From a virus (taxonomy: Duplodnaviria > Heunggongvirae > Uroviricota > Caudoviricetes), in IMG/VR virus record IMGVR_UViG_2698536392_000014, positions 1-7,970 of that record: a stretch of 7,970 bases of DNA. One strand, written 5' to 3'. How positions within the stretch are numbered: the first letter of the stretch is position 1; each line of letters begins with the position of its first letter. The notes beneath the pieces are model-generated. The model had not been told where the DNA came from. It searched no databases and worked only from the letters and a program-made list of their open reading frames with translations. This document shows positions 1-7,970 of the stretch, piece after piece. A program made the translations under genes and the position numbers.

Positions 1-378
1 CGCATGACAAAAGAGTTGACAGGTAAAACTCTGTTTATGGCGCTCAGGAGCCAGCGCCCACCTGCCGGGATAATCCACCACTCTGATCGAGGTTCACCGT
101 ACTGCGCATACGATTACCTGGTCATACAGGAGCAGTTTGGTCTGAGAACATCAATGTCGCGTAAAGGTAACTGTTACGACAACGCTCCGATGGAAAGCTT
201 CTGGGGAACGCTGAAAAATGAGAGCCTGAGCCACTATCGTTTTAATAACCGGGATGAAGCCATCTCAGTAATACGGGAATACATTGAGATTTTCTACAAT
301 CGTCAGCGTCGTCACTCTCGTCTGGGGAATATCTCCCCGGCAGCCTTCAGGGAAAAATATCATCAGATGGCTGCTTAA
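1..378 (+). CDS. IS3-family transposase OrfB (DDE integrase core), C-terminal 125 codons; 5' end outside window
   Basis: Frame is open from position 1 to TAA at 376-378. The translation (...HHSDRGSPYCAYDY...SMSRKGNCYDNAPMESFWGTLKNE...FYNRQRRHSRLGNISP...) matches, from memory, the C-terminal catalytic region of IS3-group OrfB proteins (compare IS3 InsF ...HTDRGGQYCSADY...[24 protein letters not shown]...YNRWRRHS...). Confidence 0.85.
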   Translation, partial: RMTKELTGKTLFMALRSQRPPAGIIHHSDRGSPYCAYDYLVIQEQFGLRTSMSRKGNCYDNAPMESFWGTLKNESLSHYRFNNRDEAISVIREYIEIFYNRQRRHSRLGNISPAAFREKYHQMAA

Positions 379-395
379 AAAAAGAACAAATGGTA

Positions 396-421
396 GTGTC
401 CGCTATTGCCAGTACACCTCA
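396..421. repeat. putative right terminal inverted repeat of the IS3-family element
   Basis: GTGTCCGCTATTGCCAGTACACCTCA resembles the inverse of the IS3 left end as I recall it (..CAGCAATAGTGGACAC.., terminal TGA/TCA); about 19 of 26 positions agree. The IS3 reference is recalled, not looked up. Confidence 0.4.
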
Positions 422-1482
422 AGAGTGTCAGTTGCGCTCTGATTTGTTCCTTCATCTTCAAACACGCCCTTTGTAGTCAGGTATTCAGTAATGTATTTGT
501 TCAGTGCCACAGGGTCTTTGTGAATGTCGATCGGACGTTCACGGACAAGGCCAAAAATAGTCTGGCGGTCGTAGCGAAGGGCATCAGGCTGTTTGCGCAT
601 TGATGCCGAGATACGCTTCCAGTCTTCGCGGCCGTTGTCGATAACTTCATTTTTTGCCCAGCGATGGATGCTGCCGTCAATGTTTCCGGCATCCACATCA
701 CCAGGCCAGAGAGCGTAGGCCAGTTCGTCATCCAGTGTTTTCCATGTCTGCTTGTATTCGCGATGAATGGCAGCAATGACCGGGCTGATTTTTCCTGTTG
801 AATTTTCAGTGTACTGTTGATTGGCTCTGGCGCGGGCGAGATCAACAACAGACGTGTATTTTCCGGTTTCCTTGCGTTCACCTTCGCGACGTTTTTTCCA
901 GATGCGCATTTCTGTCTGAATTTCGGGCCATTTGGCACCAGGCTTACATTTATGCTTAACCCACCCGATAGCATGCAGCTTAAGCTCCGGATACATGGCG
1001 TTAACTTCTGGCATTTTCATCAACGCTTCAACGATATGTCCGTCGAATGTTGCCATGTCTTCCTGCAACAATTCCTGCGCGCTAATCACCATATCAACGG
1101 TGATGTTTTCACATGTGTCGAACTTAACCATGACAGCGTTCTGTACTTCAGGGGCCAGCTTGTCAAAAGCGACGTTCATCGGATCTGATTCAGTCTCAAC
1201 CGGGACAAAGGAAGCAGACTCCTCATCCCAGCGGTTTTCCTGCATATATTCAGCATCCCAGGAATAGAGGGCAGGGCGGGGTATACCGGGTTTATCCTCG
1301 CAAACAAGAAATTTATAAGCGCAGTCCTGAGCAGCCGGATAATGCTCCAGGAATTGCCAGTGAAATTTTGCGCGGGCGCGACGTTCATCACCGGCTTCAA
1401 TGGCAGTGGCTACAGCGACTGCACCTTCTTCCTTTATTGCCTGTTCGTCCGGAATGGCGGCGCAAATAAAGACTTTACTCAT
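403..1482 (-). CDS. hypothetical protein, 359 aa; 3' end probably truncated or replaced by the IS insertion
   Basis: Long ORF with ATG at 1482 and a GAGG Shine-Dalgarno 9 nt upstream. Several shorter ORFs on both strands inside it look like shadow ORFs. Its last ~6 codons and TAG stop (403-421) lie inside the putative IS terminal repeat. No catalytic motif recognised by eye. Confidence 0.7.
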   Translation of the reverse strand: MSKVFICAAIPDEQAIKEEGAVAVATAIEAGDERRARAKFHWQFLEHYPAAQDCAYKFLVCEDKPGIPRPALYSWDAEYMQENRWDEESASFVPVETESDPMNVAFDKLAPEVQNAVMVKFDTCENITVDMVISAQELLQEDMATFDGHIVEALMKMPEVNAMYPELKLHAIGWVKHKCKPGAKWPEIQTEMRIWKKRREGERKETGKYTSVVDLARARANQQYTENSTGKISPVIAAIHREYKQTWKTLDDELAYALWPGDVDAGNIDGSIHRWAKNEVIDNGREDWKRISASMRKQPDALRYDRQTIFGLVRERPIDIHKDPVALNKYITEYLTTKGVFEDEGTNQSATDTLEVYWQ

Positions 1483-1761
1483 TTTGTTTTACCTCATTAC
1501 AGATTTCAGAGTGAACGAATCCCTGCCATTGCTGGCATTTTTAATCCGTTGGTATGGTGTTAATATGGCTGGAGGGTTATCCAGCCGGTGTTTCGTTATT
1601 CAGGTACAGCGATACTTTTTTTACCGGGAGGCATTCACCAGAAATTTTTTGCTCGTCTCTTGCCTGGAGGCAGGATTCTTTACTGGCATAAATTCCGGTA
1701 ATCACATTCTGTGATTCACCCGTTATAAGAAAAACCGTCATCATCAGTGCAAATGCTGAAG

Positions 1762-1950
1762 TTATTGACGTTCTCCGAAAATACCAAGTTCAAGAAGAGC
1801 AATTCGGGAAAGTATGGAATTATCATTGAGCAGATAAGGCTCATATTTCCTCATATTAATGGCATCTTCAGTAAACTCCCGGTTACTGAGCAGAACACCA
1901 ATATCAAAACAACCTTCAGACGTATTAACGTTTGGTAATAACGTTTCCAT
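1762..1950 (-). CDS. small hypothetical protein, 62 aa (METLLPNVNTSEGCFDIGV...)
   Basis: The ORF track gives 1762..2055 from a GTG; an internal ATG at 1950 is preceded by GAGGA 7 nt upstream and is the more plausible start. Same strand as neighbouring leftward genes. No family recognised. Confidence 0.4.
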   Translation of the reverse strand: METLLPNVNTSEGCFDIGVLLSNREFTEDAINMRKYEPYLLNDNSILSRIALLELGIFGERQ

Positions 1951-2055
1951 TATCGCGTCCTCAACAATGAATTTTGTGATGCGGTGCCTGGTGCCTCCAG
2001 GTGACGTTAACCAGTTAACAATTAACGCCGGATACAGAGAATCCACCCATAACAC

Positions 2056-2518
2056 TGTTTTTGGTTTTAACTGTTCCGCGTGCGCTGAGCCGCATTCACC
2101 GCATCACAAAATTCACTTTAAAAAGGGCGGCAGAGCAGCCACGGAGTAAAACTGATACCGCCAAACGTCACCAGAAAATTGATAACAGAGGGCGTTGCAG
2201 CGGGGTTGTCACTTAAGCGTATGGTCAACCTGACAACCCTGTGTCCTCAACGGGGGAAGGGATAACCCCGCCATACTTACCGCCGCGCCATTTCGCGGAT
2301 TGCCACAACCGGAAGCGCACGGTCGACGAAAATTTAACGACAGGCTATCTATGAACCAGCTACCTCGCCGTGCGCTTTCGCGTTATGGTCTGACTTTTCA
2401 GGGAAATATCCTTTCAGTAAACTGTCAGTGCCGGATGCTCACCCGTGTCCGGCGCACGCACTCCACCTCACCCGTGGAGAACTCCTTAATTACCAACCTT
2501 AGCTTCGTTGGTTAGCTA
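2056..2518. other. ORF-free, hairpin-rich region (about 460 bp) inside the leftward gene arm
   Basis: No ORF with a credible start on the minus strand (checked by hand in three frames). Contains an 11-bp stem (2201-2211 with 2231-2241), two adjacent stem-loops each carrying CTCACCCGTG (2438-2447, 2467-2476) and a 6-bp stem-loop at 2492-2512. Confidence 0.4.
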
Positions 2519-2737
2519 TTAACGCGGGTATGTAATCATTCTGGCAATGCTTAATGCCGCTGCTTTTTCCAGATTGGTGATATCCTGCTCCAGAGCGGAC
2601 AGATTTTCAGCCTGCTTAGCCCTGGCTTCATTGGCCCATTTCAGCTCCTGCGCTGCATTAATTTTCTGGTGCATCCACTCATAAAGTTCATCATCGGTAT
2701 AGTCTGGCGCGATGATGACGGGTTCTCGTTTCTGCAT
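2519..2737 (-). CDS. small hypothetical protein, 72 aa
   Basis: ATG at 2737 preceded by a consensus AAGGAG Shine-Dalgarno 5 nt upstream (reverse complement of CTCCTT at 2743-2748); TAA stop at 2519-2521. Predicted helical and charged. No family recognised. Confidence 0.55.
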   Translation of the reverse strand: MQKREPVIIAPDYTDDELYEWMHQKINAAQELKWANEARAKQAENLSALEQDITNLEKAAALSIARMITYPR

Positions 2738-2828
2738 GTCGGCTCCTTGTGGTTAGCGTTGCCTGCTTTTAACCACGTCAGGCGAGGTGGTATCCTTTGA
2801 GGGTCTGTTACTCGAGAGGAAATTGGTT

Positions 2829-3029
2829 ATGAATACAATCAAGTTTTCTTGCCCAGAATGTGGCGGCGAAGTCTTTGACACATCCTTTAAACCGCATGGC
2901 TCTGACAGTTTCGCGGGAGCCATCTGCAAAAATTGTGGTCACCTTGTAACTGAAGATGAGTCCTCGCAGTTTGATGACGAAATCGTTGACAATATCTTCG
3001 GTGCACTCACCAGAGACTTTCTGAAGTAA
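2829..3029 (+). CDS. small zinc-ribbon protein, 66 aa (CPEC-x22-CKNC)
   Basis: ATG at 2829 with GAGAGGA 8 nt upstream; two CxxC pairs with zinc-ribbon spacing; acidic C-terminal tail; no rare codons. Overlapped codon-on-codon by an antisense ORF (2808..3164), treated here as its shadow. Confidence 0.5.
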   Translation: MNTIKFSCPECGGEVFDTSFKPHGSDSFAGAICKNCGHLVTEDESSQFDDEIVDNIFGALTRDFLK

Positions 3030-3078
3030 AGGCGCATACCGCTTAGTTACCGCTCTGATAATTCTTACCTGTCCGGCA

Positions 3079-3116
3079 ATGGCGCTGATATCAATATAAA
3101 GCGCCATCGCTGTTTC
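3079..3116 (+). terminator. candidate terminator hairpin downstream of the zinc-ribbon gene
   Basis: Perfect 8-bp stem ATGGCGCT (3079-3086) with AGCGCCAT (3100-3107), 13-nt loop, followed by a T-rich tract CGCTGTTTCTTT. The long loop makes it atypical. Confidence 0.35.
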
Positions 3117-3342
3117 TTTGCTGATCCCAGGATGCCTTCCATTCTGATGTTTGACTTCGCCCACTGAGAAATCCTCTGTTTCCCCTTAACGCCGGGGTAG
3201 CGGAACAAAAAACCTGCTGCATAGTTAAACGTAATCCCCGCCGTCATGTTCATACGCCTCAGGCTGGCTACTTAACCCCTGACCACAGCCGGGTAACTCG
3301 AAGTATTGCCCTGCATTCTGTGAAGCGGGGTGGGTTGCAATG

Positions 3343-3371
3343 AATGTAAGAATATTTAGTTTTGTCGTCAA
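3343..3371 (-). promoter_or_regulatory. candidate leftward sigma70 promoter (PL-like) just downstream of the repressor gene
   Basis: On the minus strand: TTGACG (3371..3366), 17-bp spacer, TACATT (3348..3343). Would drive transcription away from the repressor 3' end into the leftward arm. Confidence 0.4.
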
Positions 3372-3372
3372 G

Positions 3373-3395
3373 TTGAATATAAATATTTTTAAGAT
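3373..3395. repeat. copy 1 of the motif TTGAATATAAAT(ATTTTTAAGAT), candidate operator or UP-like element
   Basis: First 12 bp are identical to 4102-4113; lies immediately upstream of the leftward -35. Confidence 0.45.
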
Positions 3396-3440
3396 AAAAG
3401 GCCGACAAAGCCGACCTCTGATTACAGGGCAAAGCGGGAG

Positions 3441-4085
3441 CTAGAGGCTGAACTGAACACCTTTTGCTACAGCAACGATGTTACATTCCGGTGTAAGTAA
3501 GGATGATTGATAGCGTGGGTTAAGGGGGGCTAAGTACACGAGCTTTCCATCAATAACTAATTTTTTTATAGTCATGGATGGTTCGTTTGTGAGTGGATCT
3601 GGGACTATTACTGCGACGATGCTACCATTTTTATATTTTTCGCCAGGCCTCATGATCACTGTGGCTCCAACTGGAATGCTTGGGGATCCTGATGGATTGT
3701 GCATAGTATCATCAGGCATTGAAACGGCAAAATCTCCCTCCTTGACATCAAAGAATGTGGTGATCCTGTCGACATTTCCCATAGTTTTCTCTCCTTTTAA
3801 TATTAGGAAAGAAATCGCTTCTCCCCAAGAAAGGTATGGGATTTGGGTACCTGGATTTTTCTGCACAAGGGATGATTCAGGTGATGATACTCCATACAGG
3901 AGATAGGACTCAGTAGTGCCTAGTGCTAGGGCTAATTTACTAAGAGCTTTGCTACCTGGTTCGTTTAGATCTTTCTCCCAGTATCCTATTGTTACCCCAG
4001 TTACGCCAGAAAGCTTGCCAAGTTCAACTTGGGTCAGACCTTTGTCTTTTCTGAGTTTCTTAAGCCTAATGCCAAGGCTTTCCAT
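3441..4085 (-). CDS. LexA/cI-type phage repressor (N-terminal HTH, C-terminal S24 autopeptidase domain), 214 aa
   Basis: N-terminal HTH (..KGLTQVELGKLSGVTGVTIGYWE..); C-terminal S24-like region with candidate catalytic Ser (..FAVSMPDD..) and Lys (..TIKKLVIDGKLVYLAP..); GGGAG Shine-Dalgarno 6 nt before ATG at 4085; divergent from a Cro-like gene. Confidence 0.9.
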   Translation of the reverse strand: MESLGIRLKKLRKDKGLTQVELGKLSGVTGVTIGYWEKDLNEPGSKALSKLALALGTTESYLLYGVSSPESSLVQKNPGTQIPYLSWGEAISFLILKGEKTMGNVDRITTFFDVKEGDFAVSMPDDTMHNPSGSPSIPVGATVIMRPGEKYKNGSIVAVIVPDPLTNEPSMTIKKLVIDGKLVYLAPLNPRYQSSLLTPECNIVAVAKGVQFSL

Positions 4086-4101
4086 TATTTTCTCCCGCGA
4101 A

Positions 4102-4123
4102 TTGAATATAAATTATTTTAGAT
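4102..4123. repeat. copy 2 of the motif TTGAATATAAAT(TATTTTAGAT) in the repressor/cro intergenic region
   Basis: Same 12-bp core as 3373-3384, same orientation. Its reverse complement contains a TATATT -10-like hexamer suitable for a PRM-like repressor promoter. Sits just upstream of the rightward -35. Confidence 0.45.
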
Positions 4124-4127
4124 TGTA

Positions 4128-4156
4128 TTGACCTAAAAAAAATTACCCTTTAATCT
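4128..4156 (+). promoter_or_regulatory. candidate rightward sigma70 promoter (PR-like) for the cro-like operon
   Basis: TTGACC (4128-4133), 17-bp spacer, TAATCT (4151-4156); about 30 nt upstream of the cro-like ATG, which has an AAGGGGAG Shine-Dalgarno. An imperfect inverted repeat ATTTTAG...CTAAAA spans the -35. Confidence 0.5.
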
Positions 4157-4184
4157 AAAAATACTTAGTTTTAAGGGGAGCGAA

Positions 4185-4412
4185 ATGCGAGTTGATGAAC
4201 TTGTCCAGTTTTTTGGTTCTGTCCAAAGAGTCGCTGATTTTTATGGGGTAACCCGAGAAGCTATATACATGTGGCGTAAGCGTCCCGGCGAAATAGTTCC
4301 CAAGGGGAGGGCTGCTGAAGCAGTTGCATACTCCAAGGGAAAATTATCGTTGAACCCAGAACTTTACAAAAAGAAGGATAACACCTCGAACGAAAGGAAA
4401 AATGATTCATGA
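4185..4412 (+). CDS. Cro-like HTH regulator (P22 Cro / YdaS-like), 75 aa
   Basis: Divergent from the repressor; strong Shine-Dalgarno; the HTH segment (..FGSVQRVADFYGVTREAIYMWRK..) resembles, from memory, the P22 Cro / YdaS pattern (..FGTQRAVAKALGISDAAVSQWK..). Confidence 0.8.
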   Translation: MRVDELVQFFGSVQRVADFYGVTREAIYMWRKRPGEIVPKGRAAEAVAYSKGKLSLNPELYKKKDNTSNERKNDS

Positions 4413-4705
4413 AAATCAAACATGAACACATCCGCATGGCGATGAATGCCTGGGCATATCCTGATGGTGAGAAAGTGCCTGCAGCTGAAATAGCCCGGAC
4501 TTATTTCGAACTTGGGATGACGTTCCCGGAACTGTACGACGACAGCCATCCGGAAGCCCTGGCCCGTAATACCCAGAAAATTTTCCGCTGGGTGGAGAAG
4601 GATACGCCTGATGCGGTTGAAAAAATTCAGGCGCTGTTACCGGCGATCGAAAAGGCGATGCCGCCTTTGCTGGTGGCCCGTATGCGCAGTCACAGTTCTG
4701 AATAA
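4409..4705 (+). CDS. YdaT-like / CII-analogue small regulator, 98 aa
   Basis: Start overlaps the cro-like stop (ATGA at 4409-4412), with AAAGGA 10 nt upstream. The N-terminus MKIKHEHI... matches my recollection of YdaT-family proteins that follow Cro-like genes in Rac-type prophages. The family assignment is recalled, not verified. Confidence 0.7.
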   Translation: MKIKHEHIRMAMNAWAYPDGEKVPAAEIARTYFELGMTFPELYDDSHPEALARNTQKIFRWVEKDTPDAVEKIQALLPAIEKAMPPLLVARMRSHSSE

Positions 4706-4855
4706 ATGGCTGAACTGCTGAATGATGCACATCCGGAATGGAGTTTAAGAACCTGTGAAAGACGCATTGAGCATTGGCTAAAGGTGGCAGAATTTATTTT
4801 GTACAAACCAATGGTTATGGCTTCTGGTATAGAGAAAAAAGTTATTGCTTTTTGA
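4706..4855 (+). CDS. possible small ORF, 49 aa, coupled to the preceding gene (TAAATG)
   Basis: ATG directly follows the TAA of the YdaT-like gene and ends before the intrinsic terminator; no Shine-Dalgarno of its own. Below the 60-aa cutoff of the ORF track; found by hand translation. Confidence 0.3.
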   Translation: MAELLNDAHPEWSLRTCERRIEHWLKVAEFILYKPMVMASGIEKKVIAF

Positions 4856-4933
4856 CGTAAAAACTGCTTCAATTCCGGTAAGCTTCGCAAAGCTGTACCG
4901 CGAGGCGAATAGCAGACATGGACATTTGAAAGA

Positions 4934-4955
4934 GCCCGCTTTTTGCGGGTTTTTT
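4934..4955 (+). terminator. intrinsic terminator ending the cro-like operon
   Basis: GC stem CCCGC (4935-4939) with GCGGG (4945-4949), 5-nt loop, then six T (4950-4955). Confidence 0.55.
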
Positions 4956-5077
4956 ATGACTGAAAAACGGCACGGGGCGTTAAATGCGCTGGTGGTTGCG
5001 AATACCGGTCTTTCTGCTTACTGGCTTTTTGGACAAGAATTATTGGTATGTCACGTTAACCAAAAGGGAAAAAAGAC

Positions 5078-5275
5078 ATGCTAAAACAGCAGGATATGAC
5101 AGAAACCGCCAGAGTGGTGTTTAATGAATTAAGCGTTACCGACCCGGCGACAGTCGGGGAGATTGCGCAGAATACTTACCTTTCACGCGAACGCTGCCAG
5201 TTAATACTGACCCAGCTTGTTATGGCGGGTCTGGCAGACTATCAGTTCGGTTGTTACAGACGCCTTCCGCAGTGA
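5078..5275 (+). CDS. small winged-helix-like DNA-binding protein, 65 aa; possibly a remnant N-terminal domain of an O-type replication initiator
   Basis: ATG at 5078 with AGGGA 7 nt upstream. The segment ..TVGEIAQNTYLSRERCQLILTQLVMAGL.. resembles, from memory, the lambda O N-terminal region (..LSEITKLPVKRCNEAKLELVRMNII..). Stop is embedded in a terminator. Confidence 0.5.
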   Translation: MLKQQDMTETARVVFNELSVTDPATVGEIAQNTYLSRERCQLILTQLVMAGLADYQFGCYRRLPQ

Positions 5276-5285
5276 AGGCTTTTTT
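5262..5285 (+). terminator. intrinsic terminator overlapping the stop of the 65-aa ORF
   Basis: Stem GCCTTC (5262-5267) with GAAGGC (5274-5279), 6-nt loop, then six T (5280-5285). Confidence 0.6.
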
Positions 5286-5302
5286 ATTTGTGGTAAATGG
5301 GC

Positions 5303-5333
5303 GGCTGGTGGGTGTTAGGGGCACCTACCAGCC
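5303..5333 (+). other. very stable stem-loop in the methyltransferase leader
   Basis: GGCTGGTGGGTG (5303-5314) pairs with CACCTACCAGCC (5322-5333): 12 bp including one G-U pair, 7-nt loop TTAGGGG, no following T tract. Two further hairpins follow at 5375-5393 and 5398-5416. Confidence 0.45.
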
Positions 5334-5425
5334 ATCTGCTCATGCGTTGGGTTCACAAGCAAACCTCAGGCCCACTGCTTTGCGCAAAAGCAGAATGAGC
5401 CTATCAGAGACAGGCTTAATGATCC

Positions 5426-6502
5426 ATGCTTAATACTGTAAAAATATCCAGTTGTGAGTTAATCAACGCTGATTGCCTGGAATTTATCCAGACCTTACCG
5501 GAAAACTCTGTCGATCTGATAGTCACAGACCCGCCATACTTTAAAGTGAAGCCCGAGGGCTGGGATAACCAGTGGAAGGGCGACGATGATTACCTGAAGT
5601 GGCTGGACCAGTGTCTGGTGCAGTTCTGGCGGGTGCTGAAACCTGCCGGAAGTCTTTACCTGTTCTGTGGCCATCGCCTGGCATCTGACATTGAAATCAT
5701 GATGCGTGAACGCTTCAATGTGCTGAACCATATTATCTGGGCGAAGCCGTCCGGACGCTGGAACGGGTGCAACAAGGAAAGCCTGCGGGCGTATTTTCCG
5801 GCCACAGAACGCATTCTGTTCGCGGAACATTATCAGGGGCCGTATCGTCCGAAAGATGATGGCGATGAGGCGAAGGGCAGGGCACTGAAACAGCATGTGA
5901 TGGCCCCGCTGATTTCTTACTTTCGTGATGCGCGTGCTGCTCTTGGGATAACGGCAAAACAGATTGCAGATGCCACAGGAAAGAAAAACATGGTGTCGCA
6001 CTGGTTCAGTGCCAGTCAGTGGCAGCTACCGAACGAAAGCGATTATCTGAAATTACAGTCGCTGTTTGCCCGGGTGGCAGAAGAGAAACATCAGCGGGGA
6101 GAACTGGAAAAGTCCCATTACCAACTGGTCAGCACATACAGTGAGCTGAACCGGCAGTATATGGAACTGCTGAGTGAATATAAGCATCTGCGGCGGTATT
6201 TCGGTGTGACGGTGCAGGTGCCGTACACCGATGTGTGGACGCATAAACCGGTGCAGTACTATCCAGGGAAACATCCGTGCGAAAAACCGGCAGAAATGCT
6301 GCGGCAGATAATCTGCGCGAGCAGTCGTCCGGGTGACCTGGTGGCGGATTTTTTCATGGGTTCTGGCTCAACCATAAAAGCAGCTATGGAGCTCGGGCGT
6401 CGTGCAACTGGTGTTGAACTGGAGGCAGAACGTTTTGCGCAGACCGTTAAGGAGATTAGTCACATCCTTACATGCTCAATTGATGACGGGAAGGATGGAT
6501 AA
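5426..6502 (+). CDS. DNA methyltransferase, beta-class amino-MTase (N6-adenine or N4-cytosine), 358 aa, apparently orphan
   Basis: Motif IV DPPY near the N-terminus (..VDLIVTDPPYF..) and AdoMet motif I near the C-terminus (..DLVADFFMGSGSTIKAA..); order IV-I defines the beta class, with a central target-recognition region containing an HTH-like stretch. No restriction endonuclease gene adjacent. ATG at 5426 has no obvious Shine-Dalgarno. Confidence 0.9.
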   Translation: MLNTVKISSCELINADCLEFIQTLPENSVDLIVTDPPYFKVKPEGWDNQWKGDDDYLKWLDQCLVQFWRVLKPAGSLYLFCGHRLASDIEIMMRERFNVLNHIIWAKPSGRWNGCNKESLRAYFPATERILFAEHYQGPYRPKDDGDEAKGRALKQHVMAPLISYFRDARAALGITAKQIADATGKKNMVSHWFSASQWQLPNESDYLKLQSLFARVAEEKHQRGELEKSHYQLVSTYSELNRQYMELLSEYKHLRRYFGVTVQVPYTDVWTHKPVQYYPGKHPCEKPAEMLRQIICASSRPGDLVADFFMGSGSTIKAAMELGRRATGVELEAERFAQTVKEISHILTCSIDDGKDG

Positions 6503-6613
6503 AGATATGGTCAGTTCAGGCTGTGAAGCAAGTAGACAGATAAGGCTGCAATAAAAACTGACAATAGTAAAATAGCTTTTTCCCAGGTAGTCATGAATAC
6601 GATCTCTTAAAGC

Positions 6614-6633
6614 GCCCGCTGATACCAGCGGGC
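6614..6633. other. GC-rich hairpin downstream of the methyltransferase gene
   Basis: Perfect 8-bp stem GCCCGCTG with CAGCGGGC and loop ATAC. Only a short T run on the minus-strand side and none on the plus side, so a weak terminator at best. Confidence 0.3.
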
Positions 6634-7271
6634 AATACATACTGGCATTAATGTTAAGTTCAGGGATAATTCATCGTATTTTGTGGTACGACGCTATCAA
6701 TATTAATAAACAGTATTTTTCATGTAAAATTTCTGTTTTTTGATCTGATTCTCGTTTCCTGGGTTATGATGTTGTTGTGAACCATGCTGTTGAATGATAA
6801 TGTTCGGGTATAAAATTGTTGCTGATATGTAGCGCAGTGAGCAGGTGGTATTTCTGTTGCTGAGTGTACGGATACAGTGCTTCCCTCCCTCAGCGGGGGG
6901 GCAGGTGTGCTGTGGTTTTAGAGACACCGGAAACGAGAATGATGCGGGTTTGCTGGTGCCGGGATAGAGTCGCCGGAGGTCATGACATAGAGCAAAAAAG
7001 GAATGTGCATGCAAATACACACCTCTTCGGAGATCTCTTCTTTATATGGATGAGCCTCAAGGTCAATAGTTTATCTGTTATGTATTCATATGTTGTTACT
7101 TATATAATCCATACGGGCATATCATCAGTACACACATACTATTATGGCATTTTATTTTTGTTTTAACTGAATTCCCGGGGCACTCTTTTTGATTTCTGAT
7201 AAGGAACCAGAATTTTCTGTTAAATGGTGTCACGTTGTAAATGGTTAATGGAAGCAGCTTATTATCCATAA

Positions 7272-7295
7272 TCACACCTGAGTTAACAGGTGTGA
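7272..7295. promoter_or_regulatory. perfect 9-bp inverted repeat TCACACCTG-AGTTAA-CAGGTGTGA, candidate binding site for a dimeric regulator
   Basis: Exact palindrome arms with a 6-bp spacer, inside an ORF-poor AT-rich region about 430 bp upstream of the next gene start. Confidence 0.35.
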
Positions 7296-7722
7296 GAATA
7301 CTTCCGGGTGGCAGGAACACATCTGACTGATACCAGATTATCAACTTTATTTTACACCATACAGTTGAAAACGTTATTCCGCTTGATGGGCATATCACTG
7401 TGTCAATAACTATCCATTCCATCTTTTAACCTTCTCGGTACACATTGCTTTCGATTGTTTTGCTAAAAATCATAGTCAATAAATCAGTGTAACTCATTGA
7501 AAAAGATCGTCTTCTTTGTCTTCCTGGGGTTTTCTTTTCTAATTTTGTATCACTTTGGTTCAAGTTGTTTCATTTTTTTGTAATACAAATTAGCAGGATG
7601 AGCGGGAATATAAAAAAATCGGATGTTTTTGTAATGGATATTATTTTTTGTAAAATAATGTATTTTTATTTAAATCTCTATCAGAAAAGAATTTATTGTT
7701 CCTTTATATGGTGGAAAAGGTC

Positions 7723-7970
7723 ATGGTATTTAAACACTACGATGTGGTCAGGGCGGCGTCGCCGTCAGATCTTGCGGAAAAGCTGACACAAAAACTGAAG
7801 GAGGGGTGGCAGCCATTTGGCAGCCCGGTGGCCATCACGCCTTATACTCTGATGCAGGCCATTGCTGCGGAAGGTGATGTCACCCCACCTGTGTTGGTGA
7901 AGCCGTCGGATGGAGAAGGCACAGTAATCAGCGCCACCAGAGACCCGGAGTATTACTTTGTTGTGGTTCT
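7723..7970 (+). CDS. hypothetical protein, 5' partial (first 82 codons; continues beyond window)
   Basis: Not in the ORF track because no stop is reached. ATG at 7723 (alternative in-frame ATG at 7708) preceded by AAAGG; translation MVFKHYDVVRAASPSDLAEKLTQKLKEGWQPFGSPVAITPYTLMQAIAAEGDV... is open to the window end, with a clear shift to higher GC and typical codon usage after the AT-rich spacer. Confidence 0.5.
   Translation, partial: MVFKHYDVVRAASPSDLAEKLTQKLKEGWQPFGSPVAITPYTLMQAIAAEGDVTPPVLVKPSDGEGTVISATRDPEYYFVVV

Follow-up and report, generated by a model that had tools for sequence, protein, structure and literature searches.

The right end of an IS600 copy truncates an exonuclease gene at a probable deletion boundary in a decaying, probably ompW-type prophage of Escherichia coli

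The DNA analysed here, referred to as the window, is a stretch of 7,970 nucleotides (IMG/VR record IMGVR_UViG_2698536392_000014, positions 1 to 7,970) that belongs to the early-left part of a lambdoid prophage in decay, probably one of those that integrate at ompW (PPompW type). Positions 1-421 (plus strand) are the 3'-terminal 421 bp, and thus the right end, of IS600, a 1264-bp element of the IS3 family (IS3 group) that occurs in Shigella and E. coli; the window starts within the element, and this part corresponds to positions 6001-6421 of a locus (L001) in the complete genome of E. coli 2013C-4830. Adjacent to it on the minus strand, 422-1482 hold what is left of a lambdoid-prophage exonuclease gene, namely its 5' part (codons 1-354), with the region for the catalytic domain missing, and just upstream of this gene are a DUF1482 gene and dicB (1577-1950, minus strand), as judged from Pfam DUF1482 and from the RefSeq annotation of the L001 equivalent. 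Further to the right, at 3441-4412, 5426-6502 and 7096-7422, the prophage has a pair of divergent genes for a LexA/S24-type repressor and a P22-Cro-like protein, a gene for an N6/N4 DNA methyltransferase, and iraM, which encodes an anti-adaptor for RssB. A second deletion junction, without any IS, lies at 4409-4855, where a YdaT-family gene that has lost its C-terminal end (4409-4702) runs straight into a DUF1133 gene that has lost its N-terminal end (4706-4855). In an intact relative (L080) the two parts are separated by ~3 kb with the remainder of ydaT, a DUF977 gene and genes for replication, so the replication module has been lost as well.

The plus-strand ORF at 4-378 represents the C-terminal 124 codons of the IS600 OrfB (DDE/rve) transposase, based on the ORF list, Pfam and the end of the RefSeq CDS. 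It contains the rve, rve_2 and rve_3 integrase-core domains expected of an IS3-family DDE transposase, and its TAA stop is at 376-378, in agreement with the orfB stop given in an earlier note on this DNA; in a near-identical genome the RefSeq CDS 'IS3-like element IS600 family transposase' ends at the equivalent of position 378. Window 1-440 matched at 6,601 places, spread over 2,973 of the 5,426 complete E. coli genomes; almost all of these matches have at least 95 % identity and fall under RefSeq CDSs of the same name. With a 440-base query so many matches mean that the likeness to IS600 is not due to chance. At least 80 % of the query was covered in 3,430 records, and nearly all best matches were at least 95 % identical. 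The IS part is 97.5-98.9 % identical to thousands of IS600-annotated copies, the closest one in the 5,426 genomes being 98.9 % identical. Compared with the copy at the same site in L001 there are five base differences, all in orfB (at 28, 70, 98, 119 and 146), and all five of these private substitutions are nonsynonymous: A>T, L>I, Q>P within the DRGSQY motif, R>L and K>R. They may reflect a decaying transposase or an assembly error in a repeat, and because of them the genome of the window is neither of the two complete genomes that match it (see below). Exact IS600 ends were also observed on short contigs (L033, L036 and L049) labelled as Streptomyces sp. UG1 (1,380 bp, coverage 1.3) and as metagenome-assembled genomes of Bacteroidetes and Proteobacteria; such records seem to be due to contamination or mis-binning and not to represent true hosts.

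The terminus of the element is base 421. Four IS600 copies, namely those of the window, of L001 (same site), of L002 (in a P4-type integrase gene) and of L003 (beside a Rha regulator gene), are identical through ...GCCAGTACACCTCA and diverge from 422, and the right-end letters common to them are ...GTACACCTCA, with 421 as the last base. The earlier note had placed the end of an IS3-type inverted repeat at about 421 and would have been contradicted by a terminus before 403; the multi-copy alignment fixes it at exactly 421. The right terminal inverted repeat (IRR), which ends in 5'-...CACCTCA-3', occupies 393-421 on the plus strand, its end being set by this break in identity. The left inverted repeat (IRL) of complete IS600 copies starts TGAGGTAGCCTGAG..., and IRL (TGAGGTAGCC...) and IRR (...GTACACCTCA) match at 19 of their first 27 positions, including TGAGGT...CGGACACT; imperfect inverted repeats with 5'-TG...CA-3' ends are typical of the IS3 family. 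The full element in L001, delimited by blastn of L001 against another genome, extends over 5158-6421 (1264 bp), position 6421 being window 421, and is 99.6-99.8 % identical to other IS600 copies. Elements of the IS3 family have overlapping orfA and orfB joined by a programmed -1 frameshift; at this site in L001, and likewise in L005 (genome of 2012C-4227), the complete IS600 bears the RefSeq label 'programmed frameshift' (orfAB), as annotation only.

The top megablast matches ran 12-19 bases past 421 (to window 433-440), with flanks similar to the window's GTGTCAGTT. A later terminus or a target consensus was considered for these matches and rejected: the terminus is fixed by the alignment of several copies, and the likeness of the flanks is an artefact of ranking by score. 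A right-flank consensus of IS600 was not found among 51 distinct right flanks, drawn from 70 additional loci, nearly all of S. flexneri SFBU1023 and E. coli ECMA0423, plus E. coli loci, as the columns reached at most 0.21 bit, below the multiple-testing null.

The minus-strand ORF of 359 aa at 403-1482 runs across this terminus. The end of its translation reads ...SATDTL followed by EVYWQ and a stop, and translation of 403-450 shows that this tail (403-420), with EVYWQ at 406-420 and the stop TAG at 403-405, is encoded by the IS. The third base of Leu354 (base 421) is also supplied by the IS, as are codons 355-359 and the stop, which bears out the earlier view that the ORF stops at 403 with IS-derived last codons. 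Residues 1-354 are identical at 348 of 354 positions (98 %) to the 816-aa protein WP_000048499.1 of strain E2865, after which no identity is left; the E2865 locus (L004) served only as a full-length exonuclease reference, its integrase being unrelated at the DNA level. The ORF matches positions 1-355 of 823 in the phrog_2082 'exonuclease' profile (E = 3.9e-274) and so shares the N-terminal homology of this family. The sole Pfam domain of the full-length exonuclease is an Rv2179c-like 3'-5' exonuclease domain (PF16473) at residues 635-806, whereas in the window's ORF no Pfam domain was found, and the C-terminal PF16473 catalytic domain by which it would belong to the family functionally is absent. 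Uninterrupted exonuclease genes, including alleles that are 100 % identical to window 422-481, read ...GGCGACGAG and then AGAGTGTCAGTTGCG... across the insertion point, the DNA continuing from ...GACGAG into AGAGTGTCAG.... The full gene has 816-823 aa, of which the ORF keeps 43 %. The IS does truncate the gene, as had been proposed from the sequence, but the loss is not confined to the end of a 359-aa gene: it amounts to 462-469 codons, and relatives without the IS, far from sharing the same gene end, read on for at least 462 codons. RefSeq describes the equivalent ORF in two genomes as 'exonuclease; incomplete; missing C-terminus'. As a chimeric ORF without the C-terminal Rv2179c-like domain, it is a pseudogene remnant and neither a natural gene nor a functional member of phrog_2082.

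The exonuclease remnant is transcribed towards the IS, convergently with orfB, and any read-out from the IS would be antisense to it. The suggestion that the outward-reading IS end could influence the expression of the neighbouring gene was not borne out. A pattern scan gave no sigma-70-like site on either strand in window 250-1750, and the outward-facing hexamer TTGCCA in the IRR (406-411) has no usable -10 partner at 16-18 bp in the flank, where the sequence is TCAGTT, CAGTTG or AGTTGC; an outward promoter from the IS end was thus rejected. In a circle junction (IRR, 3 bp, IRL) the hexamer TAGCCT of the IRL (within L001 5158-5170) would lie 18 bp downstream of TTGCCA, an arrangement which presumably resembles the junction promoters of other IS3-family elements. 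The same pattern scan revealed a weak terminator-like hairpin directly past the IS end (422-440, plus strand; AGAGTG-TCAGT-TGCGCTCT, then GATTTGTT). It consists of exonuclease coding sequence, is present inside uninterrupted genes too, and is probably incidental.

The original arrangement of the left arm can be read from intact prophages, in all of which, as far as examined, the order int-xis-exonuclease-DUF1482-dicB is the same. The map of PPompW_132418 (LC567822.1) shows an attL repeat, intE at 255-1385, xisE at 1363-1611 and the exonuclease gene at 1676-4143, and PPompW-type prophages have no separate bet/recT-type genes between xis and the exonuclease gene. The ompW prophages of Shiga-toxin-producing E. 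coli (PPompW_132418 and that of O157:H7 PV15-279) resemble the prophage studied here in the order int-xis-exonuclease-DUF1482-dicB-...-ydfC and in sequence, the integrase remnant being 99.1 % and the exonuclease remnant 92-98 % identical. They differ from it in that IS600 here takes the place of 2.38 kb belonging to int, xis and the exonuclease gene, in having dicA/dicC in the immunity region where the window has the LexA/S24-type repressor and the P22-Cro-like protein, and in retaining the replication module.

Since the window begins inside IS600 and contains neither attL/ompW sequence nor int or xis, the left side was read from near-identical genomes. Among 5,426 complete E. coli genomes just two have the exact junction, 2013C-4830 (L001) and 2012C-4227 (L005), both O165:H25 ST119; these are also the only complete genomes covering at least 80 % of the window, with 99.9 % identity overall and 100 % over 382-481. 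In both, the other end of IS600 adjoins the ompW-site prophage integrase gene at codon ~227, so that its last 150 codons are kept, and RefSeq describes this remnant as 'tyrosine-type recombinase/integrase, missing N-terminus'. The 538 bp to the left of the IS consist of a piece of ompW' and integrase codons 227-376; xis is missing, and on the ompW side there is an IS2 fragment instead. L001 4620-5157 corresponds to PPompW_132418 168-705 and L001 6422 onwards to PPompW 3083 onwards, with 2,377 bp absent between them; with the intact ompW prophage of O157:H7 PV15-279 as reference, the gap is 2,381 bp. This ~2.38 kb comprises ~1.4 kb of the exonuclease 3' part, xis and 0.68 kb of the integrase 5' part. 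The integrase remnant begins just past a TGQR motif, which we take to contain the box I catalytic Arg of lambda-type tyrosine recombinases, and it would accordingly have lost this residue together with the arm-binding and core-binding parts. The statement of the earlier note that the IS removes the rest of the left arm is therefore only partly correct: xis and the 5' part of the integrase gene are gone, while a piece of attL/ompW' and 150 integrase codons remain outside the window, and of the recombination genes that the note expected there only the exonuclease's own C-terminal part was there to lose. Based on the near-identity of the rest, the window's own genome probably shares the left junction of these two genomes.

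The published study of clonal complex 119 assigns the genomes of L001 and L005 to O165:H25 ST119, clade A; it also describes deletions that vary in length in the ompW_1 and ompW_2 prophages, and it locates the effector set nleG-1/espM-1/nleG-2 on the ompW_1 prophage (PMC10132054). In L001 positions 432-5157 contain nleG, espM1, a nleG-like DUF1076 gene, IS630 and IS2 fragments, a 44-bp ompW' repeat and the integrase remnant, which fits tandem ompW prophages with type III secretion effector cargo on the first. As these effector genes lie to the left of the integrase remnant, the window would belong to the second prophage of the pair. An IS1203 insertion near the exonuclease gene in O111 strains was also considered, but it is located in the nin region and not at this site.

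This IS600 copy has no target duplication. Its flanks in L001 and L005 read ...TCTGAA before the IS and AGAGTG... after it, i.e. GAA against AGA, so the check for a duplication at the other IS end, which the earlier note had proposed, gives none. The target of IS600 is 3 nt (PMC9397093), and other copies do show 3-bp duplications (GAG in L002, GGT in L003 and AGT in L008). A duplication was kept in 13 of 32 complete IS600 copies with distinct flanks, in a survey (loci L009-L078) that covered nearly exclusively S. flexneri SFBU1023 and E. coli ECMA0423, both rich in IS elements; copies without it, due to recombination or deletion, are thus common. The absence of the duplication here is evidence of a secondary deletion and not against membership in IS600, and together with the collinear gap it is the signature of an IS-bounded deletion. 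With no duplication, with the int' and exonuclease remnants joined and with ~2.38 kb missing in both genomes, the proposal that the IS marks a deletion boundary is supported.

The likely appearance of the locus before the deletion can be seen in E. coli 20.1 (L008 4158-5421) and RM6927, where this exonuclease gene is interrupted by an IS600 that has the orientation of the window's copy and is located 2 bp from its site, with an AGT duplication and with int, xis and both halves of the exonuclease gene intact. This shows that the stretch accepts IS600. The exonuclease allele interrupted in 20.1 is another one (~94 % identical, against 100 %), so the insertion in 20.1 and RM6927 is an event independent of that in the window. 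Two insertions in the same orientation, 2 bp apart and in different alleles and lineages make the site a candidate hot spot despite the lack of a general flank consensus. A local, structure-dependent preference of IS600 for exonuclease codon ~354, on the hairpin at 422-440, is nevertheless rather doubtful.

Taken together, the reading that we consider to be correct with a probability of roughly 0.9 is that the right end of IS600 truncates the exonuclease gene and that the IS replaces a collinear block of ~2.38 kb in a decaying ompW-type prophage. IS600, a copy-out/paste-in element, would first have interrupted the exonuclease gene and duplicated the 3-bp target AGA, and only afterwards would the DNA on its left have been lost; insertion as the first step is suggested by the simple insertion in 20.1, 2 bp away with its AGT duplication and intact int, xis and exonuclease halves. 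The loss may have been a one-sided, transposase-mediated deletion adjacent to the IS, possibly helped by the IS-excision enhancer (IEE), a route to which we would, as a rough estimate, give about even odds. Alternatively, RecA may have removed the block by recombining this IS600 with another copy in int in direct orientation; this route is, again roughly estimated, a somewhat less likely but serious candidate. Adjacent deletion and two-copy recombination yield the same product and are inseparable by sequence alone. IS600 is known to be a substrate of IEE, which also deletes regions flanking an IS (PMC9397093), and the locus is similar to IEE-type deletions in having an IS3-family element at the edge of a flanking deletion and no target duplication. 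It differs from them in that the sequence bears no sign of IEE and that O165:H25 CC119 sensu stricto is without iee: this group does not have the SpLE1-like element encoding IEE, which its ancestor lost (PMC10132054), and any action of IEE would have to predate that loss. IEE as the cause is thus unsupported, and we regard it only as a possibility.

A search for an ancestor carrying the exact insertion and an intact left side was made with the left-junction, the right-junction and the IS2'/ompW'/int' boundary as queries, and all returned the same two genomes only. Strain 90-3040, whose integrase segment is 100 % identical, was discarded as a guide to the ancestor, because it has a different IS-bounded deletion (int-xis'-IS3-family element-lysis genes) and is uninformative.

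Of the other explanations, the one that survives best, though improbable, is that the junction is chimeric and that no internal deletion took place, an IS600 in the integrase gene of one prophage having recombined with an IS600 in the exonuclease gene of another. These genomes have 23-33 IS600 copies and tandem ompW prophages (PMC10132054), an IS2 fragment already disrupts the attL side, and in comparison with PPompW the integrase remnant is 99.1 % identical but the exonuclease side 93.8 %. Mosaic identity is, however, normal in lambdoid prophages, and the ompW prophage of O157 matches both sides well (99.1 and 97.8 %). Furthermore, the integrase and exonuclease remnants have the order and orientation seen in every intact prophage examined, which a random exchange would not guarantee.

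It is less probable still, and in our judgement quite unlikely, that the window's genome has a simple insertion only, with the 3' half of the exonuclease gene, xis and int intact beyond the IS. The left end of the IS is outside the window, its IS600 is 5 SNPs away from the copies in the two deletion-bearing genomes, and an arrangement of this kind exists 2 bp away in 20.1 and RM6927. That insertion, however, shares neither the base nor the allele of the window's junction (~94 % compared to 100 %), and the only genomes with the exact junction and flank (100 % over 382-481, 99.9 % over 7,970) carry the deletion. The two readings differ in what precedes the IRL in the window's genome: ...GCAAATATCTGAA and the integrase remnant if the deletion is true, ...GGCGACGAGAGA and the exonuclease 3' half if the insertion is simple.

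That the 359-aa ORF could be a true short gene that by chance ends naturally beside the IS, as the short families phrog_5943 (257 aa) and phrog_31653 (81 aa), which match only the N-terminal region, might suggest, is refuted almost beyond doubt by the alignment of IS600 copies (its last five codons and stop lie in sequence that is invariant among copies at unrelated sites), by the break in exonuclease identity and by the IS-free relatives, since the genomes examined, out of more than 3,400 with the region, run on into the 816-823-aa gene and RefSeq flags the ORF as incomplete. The short PHROG families themselves most likely derive from similarly truncated genes.

Both the element and the event, a cryptic lambdoid prophage of pathogenic E. 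coli being eroded through an IS, are of a known kind, and this decay is already reflected in the RefSeq annotation and in the CC119 literature. Its significance hardly goes beyond correct annotation: the 359-aa ORF is to be recorded as a chimeric pseudogene, not as a protein-coding gene. With xis and the N-terminal part of the integrase gone, excision of the prophage is almost certainly no longer possible, and the prophage would be locked in the chromosome. Being present in 2 of 5,426 complete genomes, the junction could be used to recognise one lineage, clade A of O165:H25 ST119.
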